From Erysipelotrichaceae bacterium (GTDB lineage: Bacteria > Bacillota_I > Bacilli_A > RFN20 > CAG-449), in contig SVBD01000001.1 in NCBI GenBank assembly GCA_015059045.1, forward strand, positions 66,165 through 130,164: DNA of 64,000 bases, in the 5' to 3' direction. Below are positions 5,143 through 63,694 of this stretch, piece by piece (the first letter of the stretch is position 1; each line of letters begins with the position of its first letter). The notes below the pieces were generated by a model. The model did no database searches. It worked only from the letters and a program-made list of their open reading frames with translations, and had not been told where the DNA came from. Made by a program: the position numbers and the translations under genes.

Positions 5143-6981
<1,839 letters not shown>

Positions 6982-7037
6982 TTTATGTGATTTGGAGGCA
7001 TAGCCTCCTTATTGCGTATTTAGAAAGGATGTATTAA

Positions 7038-8183
7038 ATGGCTAACAAACGTGATTATTATGATGTCTTAGGTCTTTCTAAAACTGCAACTGATGATGAA
7101 ATTAAATCAAATTATCGTAAACTAGCAAAAAAATATCACCCAGACTTAAATAAAGAACCAGGTGCTGAAGAAAAATTTAAAGAAGTTCAAGAAGCATATG
7201 AAGTCTTATCTGATTCAAAGAAAAGACAAACTTATGACCAATTTGGTCATGCTGCTTTTGATCAAAACGGTGGCGCAAGTGGATTTAATAGTGGATTTGG
7301 AGGCTTTAGTGGTTTCCAAGATATGGATGTTGATTTAGGAGACATTTTTGGTTCTTTCTTTGGTGGCGGAAGAAGACAAAACCGCGCAAGTGGACCAATG
7401 AAGGGGAATGATTCATTCCTATCTATTAAAATTAGTTTCATGGACTCAGTAAAAGGTAAAAAGATTGAATTACCTATTACATTTGATGAACCATGTTCTT
7501 CGTGTAAAGGCACAGGAGCTGAGTCTCCAAATGATATTACAACATGTACTAACTGTAATGGTACTGGTCATGTTAGACAAAGAACTCAAACAATCTTTGG
7601 TACTATGGAATCACAAGCTGTATGTCCAACTTGTGGCGGAAGTGGTAAAGTAATTAGAAATAAATGTACAAGTTGTGGCGGTAAAGGATATAAGAAAACA
7701 AAAACTAAGATTGATGTTAATATTCCAGCAGGAATTAATAATGGCCAACAACTTAGAGTTTCTGGTAAGGGTGAAAGAGGACTTAATGGCGGTCCTAATG
7801 GAGATTTATATATCGAAATTAATGTCACACCAGATAGTTTCTTCCAACGTAAAGGAAATGATATCCACGTTGAATTAACTATGAATATGATTGATGCATG
7901 TTTAGGAAGTGTTGTTGAAATTCCAACGGTATATGGTAAAGTAGACTTAACAATTCCAGAAGGTTCACAAAATGGTCAAGTATTAAAAATGAGAGGTAAA
8001 GGAATTAAAGATTTACGTAGTTCTTCTTACGGAGATCAATATGTACATTTAAAAGTAGAAACGCCTAAAAATTTAAATAGTGAACAAAAAGAATTATTAA
8101 ATAGATTCCAAGAAATTGAATCAAAGAAAAAAGGTAGATCAGAATCATTCTTTGATAAAATTAAGAAGACATTTAAAAAATAA
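7038..8183 (+). CDS. dnaJ: Chaperone DnaJ (Hsp40)
   Basis: J-domain with HPD (YHPDLNK), G/F-rich region, four CxxCxGxG zinc-finger repeats. Confidence 0.97.
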
Positions 8184-8184
8184 T

Positions 8185-8210
8185 AAAGGGGTAACACCCT
8201 TTATTTTTTT
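8185..8210 (+). terminator. Rho-independent terminator of the dnaK operon
   Basis: aaaggg-gtaaca-cccttt followed by attttttt. Confidence 0.75.
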
Positions 8211-8261
8211 ATTGATTTTCACTAAAAAATAATACAAAATAGTAATATAGAGGTAAAGTAT

Positions 8262-8651
8262 ATGAAAAAATGTCCTTATTGTAAAACATTGAATAATGAT
8301 GAACAAGAAACATGTGTTAATTGTTTACATGATATAACTGAAGTAAGTGTAATGGCACCTCCGTTAAGTAAAAAATTCAGTGCGCAAATTACTATTATGA
8401 TTTTTGGACTAATCATGTTAGTAGGTGGAATCGCTGCATTCTTTAGTCAAAGAGATGTTTATTATAATTATTTGGATTTAATGAAAATTCCTGATTTGAC
8501 ATCTCAACAAGTTGCTAAATTCCAAGAATTAGCTAATCAAGCTTCATTTGAAATGACAGCAATGTTAATTATTAGTATTGTAGGTGTAGCAACTTTTATT
8601 GCAGGAGCTGTATTCTTAGCAATCAAATATTTCAAACAGCAAAGTAAATAA
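8262..8651 (+). CDS. Small membrane protein with N-terminal zinc-ribbon (CPYC...CVNC) and two predicted TM helices
   Basis: CxxC-x9-CxxC at the N-terminus, two hydrophobic stretches, own RBS and terminator. No homolog recognised. Confidence 0.5.
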   Translation: MKKCPYCKTLNNDEQETCVNCLHDITEVSVMAPPLSKKFSAQITIMIFGLIMLVGGIAAFFSQRDVYYNYLDLMKIPDLTSQQVAKFQELANQASFEMTAMLIISIVGVATFIAGAVFLAIKYFKQQSK

Positions 8652-8682
8652 AGACTATAAAAAAATATAGTCTTTTTTTTAA
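8651..8682 (+). terminator. Rho-independent terminator
   Basis: aagactata-aaaaaaa-tatagtctt followed by tttttttt. Confidence 0.75.
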
Positions 8683-8815
8683 TATTGGAATATACTAATA
8701 AAAGAGGTGATGGTAATTATGGAACAGCCGAGTAGTAATTTAATCTATGTAAGTACTAAGAGTGCTGTTTTTACCATTGGAGTAAATAAATAGCGCTCAT
8801 TAAGGAGGGTTATTT

Positions 8816-10204
8816 ATGGAAGAATTCTTAAATGAAATCTTATTGATCATTAGATCAAGTAAAAATAATAAAGAAAAGTATAATGAATTGACTCAATATC
8901 ACGATTCTGATATTGCGGATGTTTTTACTTTGCTTGATGATGAAGAAAAAATTCATTTAGCTAAAATTTTAGGTAAAGAGAAATTATCAGATATTATCGC
9001 GTATTTAGAAGATTCTGAAGACTTTTTAGATTTGTTAAAAGATGAAGATGCGGCTGATGTTATTGAATTAATGGATGCCGATGATGCTGTTGACGTACTT
9101 GAAGATTTAGACAGTGAAGATAGAGAAAAAATCATCGAATTATTAAGTGAAGACGCTAAAGAAGACGTAAAATTAATTTTATCGTTTGAAAAAGATCAAG
9201 TTGGTTCTTTAATGACTACTAATTTCATCCAAGTAATTAAGGGAGATGGAGTTAAAGGAGCAATGAAAAAATTAATTGAGCAAGCAAGTGAAAATGATAA
9301 TATTTCTACTTTAATTGTTCTTAATCCTGATGAAACGTTCTATGGATGTATTGATTTAAAAGAATTAATTATTGCTCGTGAAGGAGAAGATTTAACTCAA
9401 AGAGTTAAAACTAATTATCCAACGGTATATGCTGATTCATTAATTGATGATGTAATTAATGACTTAAAAGAATATGCTGAGGATATTATTCCAGTACTTG
9501 ACCACGAAGAACACTTATTAGGTGTTATTACTTCACAAGATATTGTTGAATTGGTTCAAGAAGAAGCGTATGAAGACTTAAATCGTATGGCTGGTTTGAT
9601 TACTCATGAAGATGAAAAAGAAAATTTCTTTGGATCTATTAAAAAGAGAATTCCTTGGTTAATTACTTTATTGATTTTAGGTTTGTTAGTTTCTAGTGTT
9701 ATATCAGCATTTACTGATATTATCGCAGAAGTTACTGCAGCAGTATTATTTCAATCTGTAGTATTAGGTATGGCTGGTAATGGTGGAACTCAAGCTCTTG
9801 CCGTTACTTTAACAACACTAACTCAAGATGATGATATTAACCGTAAAAAAGTAATGAAAATGCTTGGAAAAGAAGTTGCTATTGGCTTTCTAAATGGTGT
9901 TATTTTAGGAGCAATTTCTTTTGGTATTGTTTTATTGTTCTTAGTTGGAAAACAACAACCAATTACATCTAACGGTGTATACAACATTAATGATTGTTTG
10001 TTAGTTGCAATGTCTGTAAGTTTATCTTTAGTAATCGCTTTAATTTTCTCATCATTACTTGGACTACTTTTACCAGTATTATTTAAGAGAATTAAAATTG
10101 ATCCAGCTGTTGCAAGTGGTCCAATGATTACTACAATTAATGACTTACTTTCTTCATGTATTTACTATGGATTAATCGGATTGCTATTTGGTTTATTAAT
10201 TTAA
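8816..10204 (+). CDS. mgtE: Magnesium transporter MgtE
   Basis: MgtE N-domain, CBS pair, C-terminal TM domain with DPAVASGPMITTINDLLS. RBS aaggaggg. Confidence 0.9.
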   Translation: MEEFLNEILLIIRSSKNNKEKYNELTQYHDSDIADVFTLLDDEEKIHLAKILGKEKLSDIIAYLEDSEDFLDLLKDEDAADVIELMDADDAVDVLEDLDSEDREKIIELLSEDAKEDVKLILSFEKDQVGSLMTTNFIQVIKGDGVKGAMKKLIEQASENDNISTLIVLNPDETFYGCIDLKELIIAREGEDLTQRVKTNYPTVYADSLIDDVINDLKEYAEDIIPVLDHEEHLLGVITSQDIVELVQEEAYEDLNRMAGLITHEDEKENFFGSIKKRIPWLITLLILGLLVSSVISAFTDIIAEVTAAVLFQSVVLGMAGNGGTQALAVTLTTLTQDDDINRKKVMKMLGKEVAIGFLNGVILGAISFGIVLLFLVGKQQPITSNGVYNINDCLLVAMSVSLSLVIALIFSSLLGLLLPVLFKRIKIDPAVASGPMITTINDLLSSCIYYGLIGLLFGLLI

Positions 10205-10315: not shown

Positions 10316-10392
10316 GGCGGTGTAGCCCAGTTGGTTAGAGCGACCGGCTCATACCCGGTAGGTCGAGGGTTCAAGTCCCCCCGCCGCTACCA
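10316..10392 (+). tRNA. tRNA-Met (elongator, anticodon CAT)
   Basis: Cloverleaf with anticodon loop ctCATac, CCA end encoded. Near-identical to B. subtilis elongator tRNA-Met (GGCGGTGTAGC...CCGCCGCTACCA). Confidence 0.85.
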
Positions 10393-10412
10393 TTTATATA
10401 TTAGATTTTGTA

Positions 10413-10488
10413 GGACCCTTAGTTCAATGGTTAGAGCCCCCGTCTCATAAACGGGTAGTTGTAGGTTCAAGTCCTACAGGGTCCACCA
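10413..10488 (+). tRNA. tRNA-Ile2 (anticodon CAT, lysidine-type) or tRNA-Met-like
   Basis: Acceptor ggaccct/agggtcc. Anticodon stem cccgt/acggg with loop ctCATaa. T-arm GTAGGTTCAAGTCCTAC as in Bacillus tRNA-Ile(CAU). CCA encoded. Confidence 0.75.
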
Positions 10489-10494
10489 AATACT

Positions 10495-10585
10495 GGAGAA
10501 ATACCCAAGTGGCTGAAGGGGTCGGTCTTGAAAACCGATAGGGGGTGCAAGCTCCGCTAGGGTTCAAATCCCTATTTCTCCGCCA
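10495..10585 (+). tRNA. tRNA-Ser (anticodon TGA), class II with long variable arm
   Basis: GGAGAAATACCCAAGTGGCTGAAGGG...CTCCGCCA. Anticodon stem tcggt/accga with loop ctTGAaa. 91 nt. Confidence 0.85.
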
Positions 10586-13084: not shown

Positions 13085-13340
13085 TATAAAAAGCGCCCAT
13101 ATAAATAAGGACGCTTGGATAAACGCGGTACCACCTTAATTCGTATATGAAACATATACGCTCTTAATTGTTATTCTTAACGGGAATAAACGTCTAGTTA
13201 CCTAGAAAGCTCCAAAGTGGTATTGTAAGAGTTGTATATTTCTTTCACCAAATGAAATAATCTCTAATGTTTTCTTACAACATGTCTTTTTCATTGCTTA
13301 TATAAAGTATATAACTTTTGTTTTTTTATTTTCAATAAAA
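13085..13340 (-). promoter_or_regulatory. T-box riboswitch leader of thrS
   Basis: Minus strand reads AGAGA...GGTGA (stem I), then T-box AATTAAGGTGGTACCGCG, then terminator AAGCGTCC...GGGCGCTTTTT, then RBS GGAGG. Candidate specifier ACU. Confidence 0.85.
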
Positions 13341-18944: not shown

Positions 18945-18971
18945 AACCATGGGGGAAGCCATGGTTTTTTT
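18945..18971 (+). terminator. Rho-independent terminator of dnaB-dnaI
   Basis: Perfect palindrome aaccatgg-gggaag-ccatggtt followed by ttttttt. Confidence 0.8.
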
Positions 18972-19161
18972 ATTTGATAAAGAATGTAAAATCACTGATT
19001 TTGATAAAATATTAATAGTTAAAAATGATTTAATTTCTATTAAATTAAAGAAAAAAACATTAACCATTAATGGTGAATTTTTAAAATTAACATATTTTTC
19101 AAAAGAAGAATTAGTAATTAAAGGTGTTATTAATATGGTTAAATTTAAATATGAAAATTAG
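18949..19161 (+). CDS. yqfC: Sporulation protein YqfC-like
   Basis: LKLTYFSKEELVIKGVINMV resembles the YqfC core (FSQEEL...G). Start uncertain because the first ATGs lie inside the dnaI terminator hairpin. Followed by yqfD as in Bacillus. Confidence 0.5.
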   Translation: MGEAMVFLFDKECKITDFDKILIVKNDLISIKLKKKTLTINGEFLKLTYFSKEELVIKGVINMVKFKYEN

Positions 19162-20080: not shown

Positions 20081-20127
20081 TATTTTTATGATTTTCCCCG
20101 TAATTAATATATAGGGGGAAATTAAAA

Positions 20128-21282
20128 ATGAAATATTTTATTTATCAAACAGAAAATAATGGATGCGGTTTAGCATGCGCTAAAATGCTTTTAGGATACT
20201 ATCATAGAAACAAAAGATATTTATTTGATGAACATGAAAAAATATCGTCGTTGTTAGATATTAAAAGGTATCTAGAAAAAAGAGGATTAAAAACAACAGG
20301 TGTTAAAGTAGAAAGAAAATATTTTAATAAAGACTTTAACAATTCTATCGCCCATATTATTGAAGGCGAAAATAAACATTTTGTCGTTCTTAAAAAAATA
20401 GGCAAAAAATGTATAAAGATTTATGATCCAAAAAGAGGATTAAGAATTATTAAAAAAGAGAGTTTTTTTAATATTTTTGATGGAATATTACTAATTGTAG
20501 AAGATGTTTGCAAACACACTTGTTCTTTTATAGAAAAGAAGAATATTAGTTATTCAATTGCATATATTTCGTCTTTGGTTATTGATTTTTCAATAGTGTA
20601 TTTTTTCACTTATATCATTAATACAAAGAATCTTTTTTTAGTGCTGTTACTTTCTTTAATTGCTTTATTTAATTTTGCTTTCAAATTGTTAATTGTTTTT
20701 GGATTTAATTCATATTTAGATAAAAAAATAATTGTACCATATATTAACGGTTTAGATTTGAGTCAATTAGAATTGTTTGTAAAATATAAATCTGAATTAT
20801 TACAAAATAAATTCAAAAAAATATCATATCTTCTTATATCTATTTTTGGAATGGTATTATTAACTATTAATTCAATATTTAATTTAGTTATTTTATTTGA
20901 AATCATTACATTTATTATTTTGAAAAAAGGGGTAATTAAAACATATTTATTATTAAAAAAAGAGGACGGCTATCGTATCCAAAGAAATTATCTTAGTGAT
21001 AGGAAAAATAATTATGTTTTGTTGAATAAAATTAGTAATAGATATGCATTTATAAGCATTTTTTATTATATTTTAATAATTATTGTCTTATTTATTACAA
21101 TTGTGATAATTGGTAAAATCGATAATAAGTTTAGTCTTTCATATATTCTTTTTAGTGTAATGTCTGCATCGACAATTTATGAATTAATTAACCGTTATTT
21201 ATATTTGATTTCAGATGGGAATGATAATTTAAATTTACTTAAAAATAAAGTTTATGGTATAAAAAATAAAACAAAAAAATGA
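20128..21282 (+). CDS. C39-family cysteine peptidase domain fused to a polytopic membrane domain, with no ABC ATPase domain
   Basis: QTENNGCGLACAKMLLGYYH (Q-x5-CGxxC, catalytic Cys), KHFVVLKK (His) and IYDP (Asp) reproduce the C39 bacteriocin-processing triad. About 250 aa with at least 5-6 hydrophobic helices follow. No Walker A/B anywhere in the ORF or downstream. Confidence 0.65.
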   Translation: MKYFIYQTENNGCGLACAKMLLGYYHRNKRYLFDEHEKISSLLDIKRYLEKRGLKTTGVKVERKYFNKDFNNSIAHIIEGENKHFVVLKKIGKKCIKIYDPKRGLRIIKKESFFNIFDGILLIVEDVCKHTCSFIEKKNISYSIAYISSLVIDFSIVYFFTYIINTKNLFLVLLLSLIALFNFAFKLLIVFGFNSYLDKKIIVPYINGLDLSQLELFVKYKSELLQNKFKKISYLLISIFGMVLLTINSIFNLVILFEIITFIILKKGVIKTYLLLKKEDGYRIQRNYLSDRKNNYVLLNKISNRYAFISIFYYILIIIVLFITIVIIGKIDNKFSLSYILFSVMSASTIYELINRYLYLISDGNDNLNLLKNKVYGIKNKTKK

Positions 21283-21291
21283 GGTAGGTTT

Positions 21292-21597
21292 ATGAAATAC
21301 AAGATTACTAAACCTCATTTTAGAACTCATAAAAAGAATGGACATCCTTCTTATATTTATGCAGATAATGGTACTGAATATAAGTATATAGGTATAACTC
21401 ATTCTAATAAAACTTATGGCCAATATAATAAAGTTTTAAAATATAATCCAAATTCTAAAGATTCTAGGATTAGTTATATGAGAAAATTTAGTACACATGA
21501 TCTTAAAAAGAATTTTAAGAAAAAACTTTTAAAAGGATATAAAACACATAAAGCTGATAAAAGAATGATTTCTAAAATAAAGAAAAATTATAAATAA
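21292..21597 (+). CDS. Small very basic protein with GIY-YIG-like N-terminal motif (YIY-x8-YIG), possibly a degenerate YazA/YhbQ-like fold
   Basis: HPSYIYADNGTEYKYIGITHS fits the GIY-x(8-11)-YIG pattern. About 30% Lys/Arg/His. Canonical catalytic Arg and Glu not evident. RBS gaggtagg and an 8-nt gap to the upstream gene. Confidence 0.4.
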   Translation: MKYKITKPHFRTHKKNGHPSYIYADNGTEYKYIGITHSNKTYGQYNKVLKYNPNSKDSRISYMRKFSTHDLKKNFKKKLLKGYKTHKADKRMISKIKKNYK

Positions 21598-21602
21598 AAA
21601 AA

Positions 21603-21643
21603 GATACATCGCAACTCTATTTCTAGGCGCATATCGATGTATC
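21603..21643 (-). terminator. Hairpin (9-bp perfect stem gatacatcg/cgatgtatc, 23-nt loop) with A-run on its + side, i.e. terminator-like in minus orientation
   Basis: Seen directly. A T-run is present only on the minus-strand reading. No convincing minus-strand gene upstream of it. Confidence 0.35.
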
Positions 21644-21754
21644 TATAAATAGTATATGTCATTCAAATTTATAAATCAATATTTTAGTTAATTTTAATAA
21701 GTTTATTTTGTTAATAATATCACTATGTGATATAATAGATTCGAGGTAACAAAT

Positions 21755-22219
21755 ATGGATATTGAAATGAGTTTTTATAACGAAACAAATTATGAAAAGT
21801 ATAATGAAGAGTATTTTTTTAATTTGGCTCAAGTGATTTTTAATCATTTAAAATTAAATAATTACTTTATATTTGATATTACAATTGTTACACTAGATGA
21901 AATTCATAGAATTAATAAAGAATACAGAAATATTGATCGTCCAACTGATGTAATCTCCTTTGCATTTGAAGATGAAGTTGAAGGTGAAAATAAGATTATT
22001 AGAAATGATAATTTACCAAGAACTTTAGGAGAAATCTTTATTTGTTATGAAAAATGTCAAATGCAAAGTGAGGAATATGGTCATTCACTTGATAGAGAAA
22101 TGGCGTTCTTATTTACACATGGTTTATTACATCTACTTGGTTATGATCATATGAATGAAGAAGATGAAAAAATTATGTTTAAAATTCAAGATGAAATTAT
22201 GGATTTATTGAAATTATAA
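21755..22219 (+). CDS. ybeY: Endoribonuclease YbeY (16S rRNA maturation)
   Basis: HGLLHLLGYDH zinc-binding motif. 154 aa. Precedes cdd-era-recO. Confidence 0.92.
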   Translation: MDIEMSFYNETNYEKYNEEYFFNLAQVIFNHLKLNNYFIFDITIVTLDEIHRINKEYRNIDRPTDVISFAFEDEVEGENKIIRNDNLPRTLGEIFICYEKCQMQSEEYGHSLDREMAFLFTHGLLHLLGYDHMNEEDEKIMFKIQDEIMDLLKL

Positions 22220-22230
22220 AGGAGTATGTT

Positions 22231-22635
22231 ATGAAAATTGAAGAAATGTTACAACATGCAAAAGAAGCTAGAGAATTATCTTATTCTCCTTATTCTAAAT
22301 ATGCAGTAGGTGCAGTTATTGTTACTAAGGATGATAAATTTTTCTATGGCGCTAATATTGAAAATGCCGCATATCCTTCTGGTATTTGTGCTGAAAGATG
22401 TGCTTTATTTCACACTTATATGCATGGTTATAAAAAAGAAGATATTGTTGCCCTTTGCCTAGTTGCGGATAGCGAATTATTCCCATATCCTTGTGGAGCA
22501 TGTCGTCAAGTTATTGATGAATTAATGCCAAAAGATGCAAAAATTATTGTTGGCAATTTAGAAAATAAATATATGGAAACTTCAATTAGAGAACTACTTC
22601 CATATTCTTTTGACTCAGCAAATTTGGAGAAATAA
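22231..22635 (+). CDS. cdd: Cytidine deaminase
   Basis: CAERCAL and PCGACRQ zinc-binding motifs. 134 aa. Confidence 0.92.
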   Translation: MKIEEMLQHAKEARELSYSPYSKYAVGAVIVTKDDKFFYGANIENAAYPSGICAERCALFHTYMHGYKKEDIVALCLVADSELFPYPCGACRQVIDELMPKDAKIIVGNLENKYMETSIRELLPYSFDSANLEK

Positions 22636-22637
22636 AT

Positions 22638-23522
22638 ATGAAGTCAGGCTTTATTTCTATAATCGGTAAAACAAATGCCGGTAAATCAACATTAATTAAT
22701 TTAATTACTAAAAATAAAATTTCAATTTGTACACCTAAACCTCAAACTACTAGAAATTCAATTCAAGGAATTTACAATGATGAGGATTCACAAATTGTTT
22801 TTATTGATACTCCAGGTTTTTTGTCTCCTCATCAAAAATTAGATGAATATATGAATAAACAAGCTTTTTCATCTTTAAATGGTATAGATGGAGTAATTTT
22901 GCTTGTCGATGCAGGAGTTTCTTTTAATAAGGAAAAGGATTCAGTAATTCAAAACAATTTAAAGACATTAGATGTGCCATTATTTGTTGTTTTTAATAAA
23001 ATAGATTTAACGAATATATATCTAGTAAATAATTTGAAAAAAGAATATTTAGAAATGTTTCCAAATGCGCAAATTATTGAAATTTCAGCGCAAAAAAATG
23101 TGAATGTTGATGTGCTTTTATCTAAAATAAAAGATATTTTACCAGAAGGATTTAAATTCTATCCAGATGATATTAAATCTGATCATCCAGTATCTTTCTT
23201 AATTGGAGAAATTATTAGAGAGAAAATACTATTATTCACTCGTGATGAAGTACCCCATTCTTGTGCGGTTAAAGTAGAAAAAATGGTCAAAAATAATAAT
23301 AGCATATCTATTAATGCGACTATTATTTGTGAAAGAAATTCTCAAAAAGTAATTATAATTGGCAAGCAAGGATCGATGTTAAAAAGAATCGGTATTGCCG
23401 CAAGAAAAGATATTGAGAAATTGTTAAATAAAAAAGTTAATTTAGAAACATTTGTTCGTGTAGAAGAACGATGGAGAAACAGCGATAACTATCTAAAAGA
23501 ATTTGGTTATAAAGACGAATAA
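22638..23522 (+). CDS. era: GTPase Era
   Basis: GKTNAGKSTL (G1), DTPG (G3), NKID (G4), C-terminal KH domain. Confidence 0.95.
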   Translation: MKSGFISIIGKTNAGKSTLINLITKNKISICTPKPQTTRNSIQGIYNDEDSQIVFIDTPGFLSPHQKLDEYMNKQAFSSLNGIDGVILLVDAGVSFNKEKDSVIQNNLKTLDVPLFVVFNKIDLTNIYLVNNLKKEYLEMFPNAQIIEISAQKNVNVDVLLSKIKDILPEGFKFYPDDIKSDHPVSFLIGEIIREKILLFTRDEVPHSCAVKVEKMVKNNNSISINATIICERNSQKVIIIGKQGSMLKRIGIAARKDIEKLLNKKVNLETFVRVEERWRNSDNYLKEFGYKDE

Positions 23523-23524
23523 TT

Positions 23525-24250
23525 ATGAAGATTGATATAGAAGGAATTGTAATTAGTCAAAACCCATACAAAGAAAAAGACGCAATGGTTTCAGTGCTTA
23601 CTAAAGACGGAATTGTGTCTTTTTTGGCACGTTCAATCTTATCGTTGACTAGTAAAAATAAATCTAGTTGCCTTCCATTTTCATATTCGAGTTTCTCGCT
23701 TTCCTCAAAGCAAGATAAGCTTTCATTAACTCAAGGAAAATTAATTAAATCATACTATCATTTTTTTAATTCATTAGAAAATCTATCATCAATTAACTTG
23801 ATTAATGAATGCATTTTAAAATTTGTCGATGAAGAAAATACAATATTGTTTGATTACTTAAAAAATTATTTAGAACTACTTGATAGAGGATTTGATGAAA
23901 CAACATTGACATTGATTATGATGGCTCAAATTGTCAAAAGTAGCGGTTATAATTTAGAATTCAATTCGTGTGTTATATGCGGGTCTAAAACTAATATTGT
24001 AGGTATTTCATATGATGAAGGTGGATTTGTTTGTAAAAAGTGTCTTAACGATACAAATAAGAAAGTAAGTAGAGAATACTTAAAGACATATCGTTATGTT
24101 TTCATGGTTCCGTTTGATATGATGGCACACTATGTAGTGAACTCTTCAATTGGATATGAATTAATAGTAAATTTTTGCGAATATTTATCTAAATCTTTTG
24201 GATTTAGAGAGATAAAAGCCTTGGAAATTTATAAGACAGTGAAAAAATAA
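23525..24250 (+). CDS. recO: DNA repair protein RecO
   Basis: N-terminal OB region, C-terminal CxxC...CxxC zinc finger (CVICG...CKKC). Position after era. Confidence 0.85.
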   Translation: MKIDIEGIVISQNPYKEKDAMVSVLTKDGIVSFLARSILSLTSKNKSSCLPFSYSSFSLSSKQDKLSLTQGKLIKSYYHFFNSLENLSSINLINECILKFVDEENTILFDYLKNYLELLDRGFDETTLTLIMMAQIVKSSGYNLEFNSCVICGSKTNIVGISYDEGGFVCKKCLNDTNKKVSREYLKTYRYVFMVPFDMMAHYVVNSSIGYELIVNFCEYLSKSFGFREIKALEIYKTVKK

Positions 24251-29462: not shown

Positions 29463-29837
29463 TTATCCAAAAAATGGTGATGAAGGTCCATTATTTTCAA
29501 AATTAATATTACTTTGAGCATTTGTGTTATTTTGATTAAAAGAATAAGTAGATGTACTATTTCCATTTGCATTTCTTTGATTAAAAATAGGGAAATTTAA
29601 GTATTTCTTAATTGAATTAAAAGATGATTTTGCTTGTTGATAAATAGGCTTAATTTGTTTATACATTGGAATAATTTGGTTAATTGTATTGATTCCTTTT
29701 TGAGCGGTGTTTAACAAAGTGTTAAAGTTAAACGATTGAGAAACTATATTTCTCGATGCTTGATTTTGAAATGAATAAAATGCTTTAGGAATGTTATTTA
29801 TATAAGGGTTTCTATTAAAATAGAAATAATTTTGCAT
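29463..29837 (-). CDS. Small Asn/Gln/Phe/Tyr-rich low-complexity protein (possible spore-coat-like or prion-like)
   Basis: 124 aa, about 35% N+Q, many F/Y/S. RBS aggtga 4 nt before the ATG. No homolog recognised. Confidence 0.4.
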   Translation of the reverse strand: MQNYFYFNRNPYINNIPKAFYSFQNQASRNIVSQSFNFNTLLNTAQKGINTINQIIPMYKQIKPIYQQAKSSFNSIKKYLNFPIFNQRNANGNSTSTYSFNQNNTNAQSNINFENNGPSSPFFG

Positions 29838-33635: not shown

Positions 33636-33682
33636 CGTTTAAAAACATTGTTTTTAAATAAAAATGTTAATATAATTGAGTT

Positions 33683-33905
33683 AATTCTATGAAATAGAGG
33701 GTTTATATTGAAGTTTGTAGAGAGAGTTTGGTAGGTGAAAAAACTCAATAGAGATATAAACTTGACACTATGGAGAATGTGAAGTGAAATTAGTAGCGGA
33801 TCCGGTTGTTACGTTAAAACTATAAAGTGCATCAAGATTTTGATGAACTAAGGTGGTACCGTGCTTTATAGCACCCTTAGAGGTACTTTTTTTATTTCAA
33901 GGAGG
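33683..33905 (+). promoter_or_regulatory. T-box riboswitch leader of the hisS-aspS operon
   Basis: Extended -10 tgtTATAAT at 33668-33676. Stem I AGAGAG...GGTGA. T-box AACTAAGGTGGTACCGTG at 33846-33863. Terminator gcacccttagaggtac followed by tttttttat. RBS ggagga. Confidence 0.85.
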
Positions 33906-47076: not shown

Positions 47077-47565
47077 ATGAATCGTCAATTAGTTGCATTT
47101 TTATCTTTATTTAGCCTAGTGCTAGTCCTATCGGTTTATTACGTAATGATGCCTTCTACAACAACGCAATTAAAGGAGAACGCACAAAATGTAAATCTAA
47201 ACGTTAAGGACGCTACAACGCTCTATTTTGAATCTTTAGATTTAGAAAGAGACAATGCTCATCAAGAATATATTGATGAAATGATTAAAGTATATGAAGG
47301 ATTAAATCAAGAATATACATTAGAAGAAGCATTCTATAATATCAATAATCGTAATAATATTATTGAAGAAGAAAAGAAAATTGAAGAATGTATTAAAAGT
47401 TTAGGGTTCACATCTTGCTATGCAGAAGTAGAAGGAGACGATTACATTAAAGTTATCGTTTATTCAACTACTAAATCTCTACTTGAAGTGGATCAAATAA
47501 TGTATCAAGTTCAATTATTATTAGAAAGAGAAGTGTCTACTTTTATCGTAGAATTTCAAGAGTAG
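47077..47565 (+). CDS. spoIIIAH: Stage III sporulation protein AH homolog, with no other spoIIIA genes nearby
   Basis: N-terminus LVAFLSLFSLVLVLSVYYVMMPST versus B. subtilis SpoIIIAH VWLLTMLSLVVVLSVYYIMSP. C-terminal LDLERDN...CIKSLGFTSCYAEVEGDDYIKVIVYS versus LDLEDAR...LIKTQGYEDALVNAEGDKINITVKS. Confidence 0.6.
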   Translation: MNRQLVAFLSLFSLVLVLSVYYVMMPSTTTQLKENAQNVNLNVKDATTLYFESLDLERDNAHQEYIDEMIKVYEGLNQEYTLEEAFYNINNRNNIIEEEKKIEECIKSLGFTSCYAEVEGDDYIKVIVYSTTKSLLEVDQIMYQVQLLLEREVSTFIVEFQE

Positions 47566-47626: not shown

Positions 47627-47848
47627 ATGAATATCGAAATTTGGCAATTTATTTTATTTATTATCTTAGCTGTCATTGGTGGCTTAGTTGCAGGATTCTT
47701 TATCACTAGAAAAATCTTTACTAAACAATTAGAAAAGAATCCACCAATCAACGAAAAAATGATTAGAGCAATGTTTATGCAAATGGGTAGAAAACCATCT
47801 GAAGCTCAAATCAAAGCTGTAATGAAAAGCATGAACCAACATAGATAA
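47627..47848 (+). CDS. yneF: UPF0154 family small membrane protein YneF
   Basis: MNIEIWQFILFIILAVIGGLVAGFFITRKIF...NPPINEKMIRAMFMQMGRKPSEAQIKAVMKSM. Start set at the ATG 7 nt after RBS gaggaga. Confidence 0.8.
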   Translation: MNIEIWQFILFIILAVIGGLVAGFFITRKIFTKQLEKNPPINEKMIRAMFMQMGRKPSEAQIKAVMKSMNQHR

Positions 47849-50689: not shown

Positions 50690-53255
50690 GAAAAATGTCA
50701 ATATTGAAGAAGTATTTGAACAAACAATTATTGAATCTCCAATTGATGAAGTCATGAGTCAAGGATTTGGTCGTTATTCTAAGTATGTATTACAAGAAAG
50801 AGCCGTTCCTGATGTAAGAGATGGCTTAAAACCAGTTCAAAGAAGAATTGTATATACAATGACTTTAGAAGGTAATACTTCTAATAAACCAACTAGAAAG
50901 TGTGCTAGAACAGTTGGAGCCGTTATCGGTAGATTCCATCCACATGGTGATGCTTCTGTTTATGATGCAATGGTTAGACTATCTCAAGATTGGAAAATGA
51001 GATATCCTTTAGTCGACTTCCAAGGTAATAATGGTTCAATTGATGGCGATGGCGCAGCAGCATATCGTTATACTGAAGCGCGCTTATCTGAATTAAGTGA
51101 ATTATTAGTTCAAGATTTAAATAAAAATGTCGTAGATATGGAATTAAACTTCGACGATCAAGAACTCGAACCAACAGTTCTTCCATCTCGATATCCAAAT
51201 TTATTAGTAAATGGTTCTTCAGGTATTGCAGTAGGGGCTTCTACTGATATTCCACCTCATAATTTAGGTGAAGTAATTGATGCAATTTGTTATAGAATTT
51301 CTCATAAAAACGCTAAAATTGATGAATTATTTGAATTTGTTAAGGGTCCTGACTTCCCAACAGGAGGCATCATTAAAGAGGGAAATTCTTTAAAGGAAAT
51401 ATATTCTAAAGGTCAAGGATCATTTAAATTATATGCTAGAACTCATATTGAAGAGGGAAAAGCAGTCAATCAAATTATTATTGAGGAAATCCCTTACGGA
51501 AAAGATAAATCTGAATTTGTTAATAACATTGATAGAGTAAGATTTGCAAACAAGTTAGATGCAATTGTTGAAGTTAGAGACGAAACTGGCATGGAAGGTT
51601 TAAAAATCGCTATCGATGTTAAAAAAGATGCTGATATCAATAACTTATTAAACTTCTTATATTCAAAAGGATGTTTATCTACAACTATTAAGTTTAATAT
51701 GTTAGTTATTGATCACTTCAGACCTAGAGTATGTAATTTATTAGAGGTAATTGATTGCTATATTGAACATCAAGTTGATGTATTAACTAGACGTTCTCAA
51801 TATGATTTAAATAAGGCTAAAGCAAGATTACATATTGTTTCCGCATTAATTCGTGCTGTTTCAATCATGGACCAAGTTGTATCATTAATTAGAAGCAGTA
51901 AAGATAAGCAACACGCTAAACAACGTTTAATTACTGAATTAGATTTCACAGATATTCAAGCAGAAGCTATTTTAAATCTTCAATTATATAGATTGACTAA
52001 CTTAGATGTTACTACTCTAGTTAATGAGAAAGCTGATTTAGAATCTCAAATTGCATATCACGAAGCTTTACTTGGCTCATCTACTAAGATGAATAACTTA
52101 ATTAAGAGCGATTTAACTAAAATCAAAGAAAAATATGCTGATGAAAGAAGAACTTCAATTGAAGAAGAAGAGATTTCATTTAACGTTGATAAAAGAGCAT
52201 TAATTACAAAAGATGAAGTAATGGTTGCATTTACTCGCGATGGATATTTCAAACGTACGCAAATGAAATCGTATAATTCTTCTACAGTTGATTTACCTGG
52301 AATTAAACAAGGTGACGTATTTAAAGGTATAACAAAGGCATATACAACTGATTTCTTAGTTATTTTCACTAATTTTGGTAATTTCTTAAATATTCCAGTT
52401 TATATGTTAACTGATAATAAATGGAAAGATGAAGGCCAACACATTAATCAAATTGGTCAATTAAATCCAAACGAAAAAGTTGTTAATGGTATTTTAATAA
52501 GTGAATTTAGAGAAGATGTTAATCTTACATTTGTAACAAAATTAGGTCAAATTAAACGTTCACCAGTTAATGAGTTAAATGTTAGTAAGTTTGCTAAGCC
52601 AGTCAAATGCTTCAGATTATTAGATGGTGACGAGCTTGTAGATGTTAAAGTAGTGAATGGTGATACTAATTTATTAGTAGTTAACTCAAATGGTACATCT
52701 TCATTCTTTAATGAAAATGATGTTTCGTTAGTTGGTATAAAAGCTGGTGGCGTAAAAGCATTAAGTTCTACTAAAGAGAAGATTGATGTAGTTTCTTTAT
52801 TAACGTATAGAACAAATGAAAGATCTAAAATCATTATTTTGACAGATGAAAAAGGTGTAAGAATTGTTGATTCTTCACACTTAATTAAGACAAATAGATT
52901 AGGTGCAAAACAACAATTATTCAAATCATTTAAAGCTTACCCTCAAGAAGCAATTTATGTTGAAAAATCATCAAAAAATAATGAAATTTCAACAATTTAC
53001 GCAATTCTAGAGAATAATGCGTTGTCAAAAATTTCACTTGATGAAGTTAAATCTCAACCAATTGAAAGTTTCTTAAAAACTAACTTAGAAATCGATAGTC
53101 CTTTCAAATTTATTGACTCTTATACTTTTGATGTAGAAAGAGTAGATGAAACATTAGAAGTAGTCGAAATCAAAAAGACTATTGAAATAGTTAAAAAAGA
53201 CATTTTAGAAGATTATGAACAATTATCATTATTTGATTTTGTAGATGATGATTAA
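50682..53255 (+). CDS. parC: Topoisomerase IV subunit A (ParC)
   Basis: Active-site Tyr region (AAAYRYTEARL). GyrA/ParC N-terminal domain. C-terminal domain lacks a clear GyrA-box. 857 aa. Confidence 0.88.
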   Translation: MAKKNVNIEEVFEQTIIESPIDEVMSQGFGRYSKYVLQERAVPDVRDGLKPVQRRIVYTMTLEGNTSNKPTRKCARTVGAVIGRFHPHGDASVYDAMVRLSQDWKMRYPLVDFQGNNGSIDGDGAAAYRYTEARLSELSELLVQDLNKNVVDMELNFDDQELEPTVLPSRYPNLLVNGSSGIAVGASTDIPPHNLGEVIDAICYRISHKNAKIDELFEFVKGPDFPTGGIIKEGNSLKEIYSKGQGSFKLYARTHIEEGKAVNQIIIEEIPYGKDKSEFVNNIDRVRFANKLDAIVEVRDETGMEGLKIAIDVKKDADINNLLNFLYSKGCLSTTIKFNMLVIDHFRPRVCNLLEVIDCYIEHQVDVLTRRSQYDLNKAKARLHIVSALIRAVSIMDQVVSLIRSSKDKQHAKQRLITELDFTDIQAEAILNLQLYRLTNLDVTTLVNEKADLESQIAYHEALLGSSTKMNNLIKSDLTKIKEKYADERRTSIEEEEISFNVDKRALITKDEVMVAFTRDGYFKRTQMKSYNSSTVDLPGIKQGDVFKGITKAYTTDFLVIFTNFGNFLNIPVYMLTDNKWKDEGQHINQIGQLNPNEKVVNGILISEFREDVNLTFVTKLGQIKRSPVNELNVSKFAKPVKCFRLLDGDELVDVKVVNGDTNLLVVNSNGTSSFFNENDVSLVGIKAGGVKALSSTKEKIDVVSLLTYRTNERSKIIILTDEKGVRIVDSSHLIKTNRLGAKQQLFKSFKAYPQEAIYVEKSSKNNEISTIYAILENNALSKISLDEVKSQPIESFLKTNLEIDSPFKFIDSYTFDVERVDETLEVVEIKKTIEIVKKDILEDYEQLSLFDFVDDD

Positions 53256-53944
53256 TTATTTTTCTTAAATTCATTTAATAATTTAATTAAAGCTCGTTTC
53301 TCAATTCGAGAAACATAACTACGAGATATTTTATATTTTTTACTAATCTCCTTTTGTGTATGTTCGATTTCATTATTGAGTCCATACCTTAAGGAGATTA
53401 TTTTATATTCACGTTCATCTAATACATGAAGGTGTTTTCTAAGCGATTCAATTTGTTGCTTTTTTTCATATTGTTCTTCAATTGGTATTTCATCATTTGG
53501 CAATACATCTATTAAATTAATATCTGTACCATCTTTATCGACTGCAATACTTTCATTTATAGAGATATTTTTCGCTAGTTTTTTATTCGATCTAAAGACC
53601 ATTAATATTTCATTTTCAATACATTTAACGCTATAAGTTGCTAGTTTTACATTTTTATCTAAAGAGAAAGTATCAATTGCTTTAATTAATCCAATTGTTC
53701 CAATTGATATTAAGTCGTCAAAATTTTCATCTTTTGATTCATATTTTTTAGCGATATGTGCAACTAATCTTAAATTGTGTAAAATAAGTTTTTCTCTGGC
53801 ATTTTTATGGGTTTTTTCATCAAATAGTTCTTTGATGTATTTTTCTTCCTCCATATCGCTTAATTTTTCAGGATATACATTGTTATAAACAATTCCATGA
53901 AGAAAGGAACAATCAAAAATTGATAATAATAGTTCTAATAACAT
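53252..53944 (-). CDS. sigK: Sporulation sigma factor SigK, made as pro-sigma-K with an N-terminal pro-sequence
   Basis: KLILHNLRLVAHIAKKYE, DLISIGTIGLIKAIDTF, KLATYSVKCIENEILM and ISRSYVSRIEKRALIKL closely match B. subtilis SigK. N-terminal SFLHGIVYNNVYPEKLS parallels the pro-sigK pro-peptide. Uninterrupted, no skin-like element. Confidence 0.8.
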   Translation of the reverse strand: MLLELLLSIFDCSFLHGIVYNNVYPEKLSDMEEEKYIKELFDEKTHKNAREKLILHNLRLVAHIAKKYESKDENFDDLISIGTIGLIKAIDTFSLDKNVKLATYSVKCIENEILMVFRSNKKLAKNISINESIAVDKDGTDINLIDVLPNDEIPIEEQYEKKQQIESLRKHLHVLDEREYKIISLRYGLNNEIEHTQKEISKKYKISRSYVSRIEKRALIKLLNEFKKNN

Positions 53945-58347: not shown

Positions 58348-58374
58348 ACTAAATATATACTAATTATCTACTAA
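58348..58374 (+). repeat. Phased pentamer array B: ACTAA at 58348/58359/58370, spacers ATATAT and TTATCT
   Basis: Seen directly. The last pentamer overlaps the stop codon of the minus-strand gene 58371-59516. 117 bp from dif. Confidence 0.8.
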
Positions 58375-59516
58375 CTAAGCAATTTTATATAATATTGTTC
58401 AGGAAATTCTTCATTAATAAATTGAGAGTATCCTTTTAAATAGTTTTCATCATAGTAAGTAAATATATTCTTTACATATTCTAATCTATTAATGAATTTT
58501 TCATAAGGCGCATCTTCACCAAGCCACAAATGCCATGCTTGTAATCTACTTGTTTCATTCCACGATATTCCAACAGTATCGAATTGATATTTATAAGCTA
58601 AATATGTTTGCTCTGAATTAGGATCTTCGTTTGGATCATTATATTCTTCTGACATTTCTCTAAAATGAATTCTATTGTTCGCGGCTTTTCTAACATTGAT
58701 TAAATCTATTGTTGAATTTAAATAATCAAACACTTCATACATTGCGTCTTGATTATTATTGTAGTAATCAAGATTAACAAATAAACCACATTGAGGAATA
58801 CCTCTATCATTGAGATTTAAATCATCATTATATGATAAATAAGCATCTCTTAAAGTCTTACAATATTGTTCTTTAGTATGATCATCTCCTCGATCATCAT
58901 TAAGGGTAAAATTAGCATATTTTTCATTATATAATTTTGATTCTTTTAAGGTCATTAATCTAGTCGCATAAGGCTCATTAATTAAGACATAATCATAATC
59001 ATTTTCTAAGCCTTCTTGAGAGAATAAATAATTATAAAATTCAAGGTCATTATATGATAAATAATCTACGTCAAATTTATCAATTTTATTTAATGTTTTT
59101 CCTGCACTACCAAACTCATTATTTGTTAAAACTTTATATGATTTAGATGTTGGATCTAAATTTTTTAAAGGAATAAATTGTTGGTTCCCCATTGCAATAG
59201 TACCTACATAAGCATAGTTACCATATTCCTTACATAAATCTAATCCCCTAACTGAATCGTAAACAATCATTTGATAATTGCTATTATCTTTAAATGCATT
59301 TTCAATAGATTCTAAACTATCAGTAAATGTAAATTTTTCATCTTCGTAATATGTTAAAAACGCTAAAGAAGCAACACCTTTTTGACATATTAAATTAAAT
59401 TTTAATGGCTTATAAATAATTAACCAATTTTCAAGATTACAAGAACAACTACTAGTAGTTAATAAGGTCAATGATAATAATGATATAGATAGTAATTTAC
59501 AAAATCTATTCATCAT
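58371..59516 (-). CDS. Lipoprotein of unknown function (signal peptide, lipobox LLTTSSC)
   Basis: N-terminal [26 protein letters not shown]. 381 aa. Rich in N/Y/D/E. No family recognised. Overlaps the deoB start by 11 nt. Confidence 0.6.
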
Positions 59517-62899: not shown

Positions 62900-63694
62900 T
62901 TATGAGAAAATTACTTTTGAATTAACTTCTTTATTTTTAATTTTAATATGATCACTAATCATGGCGATAAATTCACTATTTGTAGGCTTGCACTTATATG
63001 ATGAAATTGTATATCCAAATATCTCATTAATCTTTGTGATATTTCCTCTAACCCATGCCAATTCAATCGCGTGTCTGATAGCTCTTTCAACTCTAATTGA
63101 ACTAGTATTATATTTTTTAGCAATTTCAGGATATAAGACCTTAGTAATACTTCCTAAAAAATTTTCATCCTCATAAGTAGATATAATTGCACTTCTTAGA
63201 TACGTATACCCCTTAATATGAGCAGGAATTCCTAATTCATGCATCAATTTTGTTACTTGTTCTTCTAAATGATATTTAATATTTTTATTTAAATTTGTAT
63301 CCAGTTCTTTTTTAAATGGTTGAAATTTAATACTTGAAATTAATGAATCTATTGAATATGGTTTTAAAAGAATATTAGATACATTATATTTACTTAATCT
63401 TGATATTGTTACTTCATTTGCAAATGAAGTTGTTACTATAATATCCCCGATTCTTGGATAATTATTTGGATTATTAAATATCTCTTCCAAAACTCCTAAC
63501 CCATCAACTTCTGGTAATAGCAAATCTAAGATTAACACATCTATATTTCTAAAATTATGCATTTTTCCTAATGCCTCTCTGCCACTACTGGCAAAATCAA
63601 TTATATATAATGATTCCTCCTTTGCTATTCTTGCGATGTTTTGATTTAATACATCTTTAATTGATTCGATAATAAATACTGACTTTTTATTCAT
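62900..63694 (-). CDS. spo0A: Sporulation master regulator Spo0A (receiver domain plus Spo0A-specific DNA-binding domain)
   Basis: C-terminus [20 protein letters not shown]...[65 protein letters not shown] is near-identical in pattern to B. subtilis Spo0A. Receiver Asp (ILDLLLP), Thr and Lys are present. The usual DD pair is replaced by E-S. Confidence 0.9.

Follow-up and report, generated by a model that had tools for sequence, protein, structure and literature searches.

Peptidase-containing ATP-binding cassette (ABC) transporters (PCATs) are ATP-driven cleave-and-export machines for bacteriocins and quorum-sensing signals. In members such as PCAT1 of Clostridium thermocellum, ComA and LahT (TIGR01193, bacteriocin_ABC), a C39 peptidase with Gln, Cys, His and Asp in its active site is followed by a six-helix type-I transmembrane domain (TMD). 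The same order was found in the product of a gene, hereafter the C39 gene, located at 20128..21282 (+) in a stretch of 64,000 nucleotides of contig SVBD01000001.1 from an Erysipelotrichaceae bacterium (the window, meaning the whole stretch of DNA that was analysed). Unlike the PCATs, of which PCAT1 is its best structural and profile match, this protein has no nucleotide-binding domain (NBD), shows gaps at both coupling loops and has no adjacent double-glycine precursor that could be found, and its gene lies in a housekeeping operon, not in a bacteriocin or quorum-sensing cluster. With moderate confidence, we regard the C39 gene as a functional, vertically inherited PCAT derivative, most likely coding for an ATP-independent, membrane-embedded processing peptidase.

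The open reading frame (ORF) of the C39 gene starts with ATG and gives a product of 384 aa, and a reading of the sequence places a ribosome-binding site (GGGGG, 20114..20118, +) 9 nt 5′ of the start. Residues 1-130 (20128..20517, +) form the C39, or double-glycine leader, peptidase domain, as delimited by Pfam, conservation and PDB matches. The Pfam model PF03412 (Peptidase_C39) matched residues 3-126 with 82.1 bits (E 4.1e-23, gathering cut-off 22), covering positions 3-130 of its 133, and matches in the PDB were LahT150 (6mpz) and the peptidase domains of PCAT1 and ComA. The motifs read as Q7-x5-C13GLAC17, H84FVVL and I98YD100P, with the catalytic codons at 20146-20148 (Q7), 20164-20166 (C13), 20377-20379 (H84) and 20425-20427 (D100), all on the forward strand. 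All four active-site residues of C39 peptidases (Cys, His, the oxyanion Gln and the orienting Asp) are kept, and the domain is predicted to be active.

The remainder of the protein, residues 131-384 (20518..21279, +), is a membrane domain, delimited by DSSP analysis of a structural model, profile matches and hhalign. In the AlphaFold2 model, built on the alignment of the family (mean predicted local distance difference test score, pLDDT, 96.5; predicted template-modelling score, pTM, 0.90), the C39 fold is followed by six long helices (141-166, 169-208, 211-248, 250-286, 292-331 and 337-383). When the model was compared with the PDB using Foldseek, the top 13 matches were PCAT1 chains, aligned over ~457 columns with a best E of 5e-13, followed by HlyB, isolated C39 domains, TAP, MsbA and TM287/288. 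The placement of the peptidase against the membrane domain in the model also resembles that in PCAT1. Likewise, the family profile aligned with residues 16-350 of PCAT1 and 6-370 of ComA, and hhalign against 14 full-length PCATs gave a probability of 99.85% (E 1.5e-30) over PCAT columns 13-475 of 734, which comprise the peptidase and the entire TMD and stop at the start of the NBD. Within this span the window protein shows gaps of ~15 residues at intracellular loop 1 (ICL1) and ~23 residues at ICL2, and its membrane domain is ~60 residues shorter than in the PCATs. The cytoplasmic turns between helices 2/3 and 4/5 of the model, of 2 and 5 residues, agree with these gaps. In type-I ABC exporters, the two coupling helices, which make contact with the NBDs, lie in ICL1 and ICL2. 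The predicted cytoplasmic loops are rich in Lys and Arg, which under the positive-inside rule fits a cytoplasmic peptidase, and in the profile alignments the conserved polar residues of the membrane domain fall on residues also present in PCAT1. The window protein is the peptidase and TMD module of a PCAT minus the NBD and the coupling-loop segments.

In regard to the missing ATPase, the C-terminus of the window protein coincides in the hhalign alignment with the TMD/NBD junction of the PCAT profile. Searches with an ABC NBD query (phmmer, tblastn) found no NBD in any frame of 21283-21754, the stretch between the C39 gene and ybeY, nor in any ORF or frame of the 64-kb window, while the same query did recover NBDs in other loci and so served as a positive control. 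A six-frame reading of 21200-21800 gave no remnant of an NBD, and no full-length PCAT or other ABC gene is present within the window. The model TIGR03796 reached 34 bits against a cut-off of 853. These results bear on a first-pass annotation made from the sequence alone, which had read a full C39 triad, the lack of an NBD in or after the ORF and the lack of a nearby double-glycine leader gene; all three were borne out, and the frameshifted downstream NBD that it had named as evidence of a pseudogene was not found. Its description of roughly 250 aa of polytopic membrane domain holds for the six helices of the model, although the Pfam model ABC_membrane, like ABC_tran, gave no match in the window protein, even at E<=1. 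Of the two identities it had proposed, a distinct membrane-anchored leader peptidase gains support and can now be stated more sharply, as the PCAT module described above.

The protein belongs to a large family that became visible only when 1.84 billion cluster representatives (50%-identity clusters) were searched exhaustively with a profile, as word-indexed protein searches with the single protein or the family profile recovered few relatives. That search gave 2154 matches at E<=1e-3, of which 378 cluster representatives passed E<=1e-10. Most of the best 150 have lengths of 380-426 aa and, except for a few shorter sequences, they align end to end with the query. Family proteins among those listed scored at least 216 bits against the family profile, compared with at most 90 bits for full-length PCATs, and a divergent NBD-less member (P0189) scored 99 bits. 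The only name recovered for family proteins was 'cysteine peptidase family C39 domain-containing protein', and neither a curated family model in Pfam/NCBIfam nor a paper on this NBD-less C39/TMD architecture was found in these databases and the literature.

In an alignment of 137 family representatives, 17-66% identical to the query, the active site is conserved almost without exception (Q7 99%, C13 100%, H84 99%, D100 100%), and mean pairwise identity is 31% in the peptidase domain versus 18% in the membrane domain. The ratio of nonsynonymous to synonymous divergence (dN/dS) of the C39 gene came to 0.24-0.26 when copies of 96% identity were compared and to 0.19 for a copy of 66% identity, similar to that of dnaI (0.20), while ybeY and cdd are under stronger constraint (about 0.05-0.06). 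The C39 gene is therefore under purifying selection. Between lineages whose Era proteins are 71-87% identical, the C39 protein is 26-38% identical, so that it evolves fast yet stays intact. Since the family is large and full-length, the catalytic residues are 99-100% conserved, dN/dS is low and no NBD remnant was found, the gene is intact and selected, not decayed.

Furthermore, the gene occupies a fixed place in the genome. The genes of the window form a conserved core region like that of Bacillus, in the order lepA, a hemN-like gene, hrcA, grpE, dnaK, dnaJ, thrS, a ROK kinase gene, pyk and pfk, then a dnaB-like gene, dnaI, yqfC, yqfD, the C39 gene, an ORF of 101 aa and ybeY, and then cdd, era, recO, glyS, dnaG, sigA, trmK, relA, hisS and aspS. 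Directly upstream lie yqfC (YabP family, 18949-19161, +) and yqfD (19124/19151-20080, +), both assigned by Pfam and NCBIfam, and the 47 nt between yqfD and the C39 gene hold no terminator-like site in a terminator scan. Downstream are ybeY (21755-22219, +, Pfam YbeY), cdd (22231-22635, +), era (22638-23522, +) and recO (23525-24250, +). The arrangement was compared in 22 other family loci from metagenome contigs and GTDB representative metagenome-assembled genomes labelled as uncultured Bacilli, Bacillales or Firmicutes; the syntenic loci were recovered by a scan of genome contigs with Era, an earlier scan with family peptide patterns having confirmed nothing. In every one of the 22 loci with downstream sequence, ybeY-cdd-era-recO follows an NBD-less family gene. 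This gene is separated from ybeY by 19-104 nt, or overlaps it by 74 nt, unless accessory DNA is inserted; widened gaps occur in L002 (213 nt), in the window and L004 (the 101-aa ORF), in L001 (two genes) and in L006 (4.8 kb).

The upstream neighbour is yqfD in most family loci, and the yqfC-yqfD arrangement of the window recurs in L001, L003, L005, L006, L075 and L083-L085. In other loci this place is taken by rpsU (L082, L093), dnaJ (L086), a gene for a Big_2-domain protein after dnaJ (L094), dnaI (L087/L088), phoH (L089) or deoC (L009). The gene has kept its position before ybeY even between lineages whose Era proteins share only 48% identity, and this position is ancestral for the clade. 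With a variable upstream neighbour and a fixed ybeY, the gene is tied to the ybeY operon rather than to sporulation. To judge by gene order, the C39 gene is part of the ybeY-cdd-era-recO housekeeping operon, with which it would be co-transcribed. The first-pass annotation had taken the gene to be inserted between yqfD and ybeY, whereas the comparison makes it an old component of the locus, and its suggestion of a tie to sporulation does not fit the loci in which family genes stay directly 5′ of ybeY behind rpsU, dnaJ, dnaI, phoH or deoC. It had noted correctly that phoH-yqfF-dgkA is absent here: PhoH, PgpH/YqfF and VanZ-like proteins were not found in the 64-kb window, and ybeY abuts cdd with no dgkA in between. 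The slot 5′ of ybeY is filled in family-free lineages by PhoH or PgpH and, in another group of uncultured Bacilli, by a membrane protein of the VanZ-like type.

The model that we prefer is that of an ATP-independent processing peptidase. Independence from ATP is suggested because the ATPase is absent and there are gaps at both coupling loops, while the peptidase active site and the exporter fold are kept. On the pattern of PCAT1, a precursor would bind at the peptidase and at the membrane-domain opening, Cys13 and His84 would cut it after a Gly-Gly-like site, and the membrane domain would serve as anchor and substrate-docking scaffold. This domain may also be a conduit, either unenergised or driven by protons. 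Because the C39 gene belongs to a housekeeping operon across a large clade of uncultured low-GC Bacilli, its product probably acts on a core protein or peptide of the cell whose gene lies elsewhere, and not on a strain-specific bacteriocin. The full-length relative P0190 (675 aa) is encoded in an ordinary peptide-export cluster that also contains a 32-aa ORF and further ABC genes, a setting in which NBD-less family members were never found.

Several observations weigh against this model. The activity of the peptidase is predicted from its conserved residues. Motif scans of ORFs of at least 20-25 aa yielded no credible double-glycine-leader ORF in the 64-kb window, and none was found by such scans in ~239 kb of related family loci; the matches that did appear were rejected as spurious, being antisense ORFs, starts within housekeeping genes or, in one small membrane protein (47627-47848), a transmembrane segment. 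An NBD or full-length ABC protein to pair with the C39 protein was looked for within the 64-kb window, and one may be encoded elsewhere in the genome. In the membrane domain, D198, K221, N248 and E285 are kept at 88-91% among the 137 representatives, a constraint that could reflect a role beyond anchoring. The near-invariant Glu285 (91% in the family) is Gln in the window protein (codon 285, 20980-20982, +) and in its closest relatives P0001 and P0003, and Glu in the 35%-identity relative P0005. Finally, membership of an operon in compact genomes is no proof of a functional tie to ybeY or era. A more far-reaching proposal, possible rather than probable, is that the clade has fixed an ATP-independent PCAT in the ybeY-era operon, either as a maturation peptidase for a core, possibly essential protein with a Gly-Gly leader, or as a proton-driven or facilitated cleave-and-release exporter. 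The latter case would amount to the conversion of a primary into a secondary transporter, as SbmA represents for ABC-type membrane domains.

Among the alternatives, an exporter of this kind, secondary (driven by the proton gradient) or facilitated, which would translocate the cleaved peptide much as SbmA does, ranks second after the processing peptidase and is in our view unlikely. The complete six-helix fold has been conserved instead of being reduced to a simple anchor, the modelled arrangement of peptidase and membrane domain is much as in PCAT1, and there is a precedent in SbmA, an NBD-less peptide transporter with a structure related to ABC TMDs that runs on the proton gradient (PMC13316013). 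However, no cargo was found, and sequence comparison offers no tie to SbmA/BacA, for which Pfam gave no match at E<=1; nor was there an SbmA chain among the 50 Foldseek PDB matches listed. The second rank follows from the conserved polar residues being present in PCAT1 as well, so that they look inherited and structural, not like a new proton path, and from the replacement of Glu285 by Gln. It is also conceivable, albeit improbable, that the C39 protein is the membrane subunit of a split PCAT, on which an ATPase encoded elsewhere docks for ATP-driven double-glycine export. The retention of a whole PCAT membrane domain with its conserved structural residues would suit this arrangement, as would the confinement of our inspection to 64 kb of the genome, but the gaps at ICL1 and ICL2 affect the very surface through which type-I exporters contact their NBDs, and the window holds no NBD. 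Relative L001 does have an ABC protein two genes downstream; this is a self-contained NBD-permease fusion of the MacB/lactococcin-972 type, from a different ABC class, and of the other family loci that were searched with this protein, none had a homologue in that place.

Type-I exporters are dimeric, and asymmetric or degenerate halves are tolerated. On this general ground, the C39 protein could form a heterodimer, as its ATPase-less half, with a full-length PCAT or an ABC half-transporter whose gene lies elsewhere, again beyond the 64 kb inspected, although we give this little credence. No full-length PCAT or ABC gene is present in the window, the MacB-type gene of L001 is the only ABC gene seen at this position in family loci, and the coupling-loop gaps would deprive the NBD of a partner of its contact in trans. 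A sporulation-specific membrane protease acting with YqfC and YqfD is very unlikely: the C39 gene does lie 47 nt 3′ of yqfC-yqfD here and beside them in many relatives, and the window also encodes Spo0A and a SpoIIIAH-like protein, but the place before ybeY is kept where the upstream gene is rpsU, dnaJ, that of the Big_2 protein, dnaI, phoH or deoC. Least plausible, and hardly tenable, is the other identity offered by the first-pass annotation, a bacteriocin exporter in decay, which would make the gene an incipient pseudogene. The missing NBD and the lack of a detectable neighbouring bacteriocin precursor are what such decay would leave behind, yet the architecture of ~385-400 aa recurs in hundreds of 50%-identity clusters, with the catalytic residues, the dN/dS of 0.19-0.26 and the position across distant lineages all maintained, and no frame downstream preserves an NBD remnant; this identity can be regarded as refuted.

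The spacer of 472 nt between the C39 gene and ybeY contains a further ORF, an inverted repeat and a promoter-like site. The accessory ORF (21292..21597, +), taken from the ORF list, codes for 101 aa rich in Lys, has its own ribosome-binding site (GAGGT) and matched nothing in Pfam, PHROG, plasmid or phage searches. At this spacer it is present in the closest relatives only: copies in L003 and L004 are 72-74% identical, and none is present in the 66%-identity relative L002. Metagenomes hold 38 unnamed clusters of homologues, most of ~103 aa and a few of 73-140 aa. Its synonymous divergence (dS) is 0.43, compared with about 0.08 for the C39 gene and 0.17-0.19 for ybeY and cdd, and with a dN/dS of 0.47 it diverges much faster than its neighbours. 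A perfect 10-bp inverted repeat, AGATACATCG / CGATGTATCT, read from the sequence 3′ of this ORF (21602..21644, +), and an extended -10 promoter-like site found by a promoter scan just 5′ of ybeY (21708-21736, +) are matches to consensus only. In L001, the corresponding place (6487-9707) holds an unknown protein of 287 aa and an NBD-first ABC protein of 742 aa (lactococcin-972/MacB type), and in L006 (4300-9100) transposase and insertion sequence remnants, a 201-aa lipoprotein and an 830-aa secreted protein. The spacer seems to be a hot spot of insertion (window 21283-21754, L001, L006). The genes in it were considered as partners of the C39 protein and rejected, as the contents in L001, L006 and the window are unrelated to one another.

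Some variation was also seen around the operon. VanZ-like proteins of ~205-220 aa are encoded directly 5′ of ybeY in L017 (8146-8763), L028 (2623-3294), L045 (8516-9181) and L060 (8549-9157), with yqfD 5′ of the VanZ-like gene in L017 and L028. In L087 (7223-8089), L088 (3060-3926) and L093 (6248-7114), ybeY and cdd are fused into one ORF of 288 aa (YbeY and cytidine deaminase), which overlaps the end of the C39 gene in L087 and L088. The start of yqfD in the window is probably the ATG near 19151 (MKIRSKY...) and not the GTG at 19124, since in the 96%-identical copy of L003 the longer reading meets an in-frame stop at its third codon. On account of this stop, a dN/dS value obtained for yqfD was discarded.

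Elsewhere in the window, Spo0A (Spo0A_C, E 4e-42) is encoded at 62900-63694 (-), a weak SpoIIIAH-like protein at 47077-47565 (+), after efp and a DUF885 gene, and a 230-aa sigma-70-family factor at 53252-53944 (-). No SpoIIIA-family match was obtained on the flanking ORFs scanned around the SpoIIIAH-like gene, and this lineage may have kept only part of its sporulation genes. Four ORFs had no Pfam match: 806-2200 (+, 464 aa), 8262-8651 (+, 129 aa), 29463-29837 (-, 124 aa) and 58371-59516 (-, 381 aa). The first of these, between lepA and the hemN-like gene, gave only a weak match to phrog_5978 (function unknown). T-box leaders lie upstream of thrS and hisS and three tRNA genes form a cluster, with coordinates, listed together, of 13104-13303 (-), 33680-33881 (+) and 10316-10582 (+).

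Compared with known systems, the best-scoring named full-length family for relatives of the window protein is NF045998 (Mbov_0121 family peptidase domain-containing ABC transporter, Mollicutes), which is probably the nearest full-length lineage to the NBD-less family. Its model scored 58 bits with the L001 protein (model positions 2-241) and 88 bits with P0189 (2-439, the peptidase and the whole TMD). With the window protein it scored 25.4 bits against a cut-off of 500, and its NBD half (about 440-673) was unmatched. P0190 is a full-length member of NF045998 and, unlike the window gene, does not lie beside ybeY. C39 peptidases without a fused ATPase are also known from FapD (NF058616), FilB (NF050078) and the isolated LahT150. 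LahT150 is the best single-domain PDB match and represents an excised domain of a full transporter, while the FapD and FilB models, of 224-277 positions, have no PCAT-type membrane segment, unlike the window protein, which scored 34.5 bits with FapD (cut-off 330) and 25.1 bits with FilB (cut-off 475).

The C39-like domains (CLDs) of the HlyB type likewise place an N-terminal C39 fold on a type-I TMD, and 7sgr and 8dck were among the Foldseek matches. The catalytic Cys has been lost from CLDs, which are inactive, and HlyB retains its NBD. The window protein is the opposite of the HlyB case, as it keeps the active site and has no NBD. With SbmA/BacA (SbmA-like peptide transporters, SLiPT) it shares an NBD-less fold related to the ABC TMD, an analogy of principle only, since SbmA has no peptidase domain and imports peptides. 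Selection on the gene in hundreds of clusters next to ybeY-era points to a housekeeping form of double-glycine processing that would be independent of ATP-driven export, and the family offers a natural test case for an ABC-exporter membrane domain without its motor.

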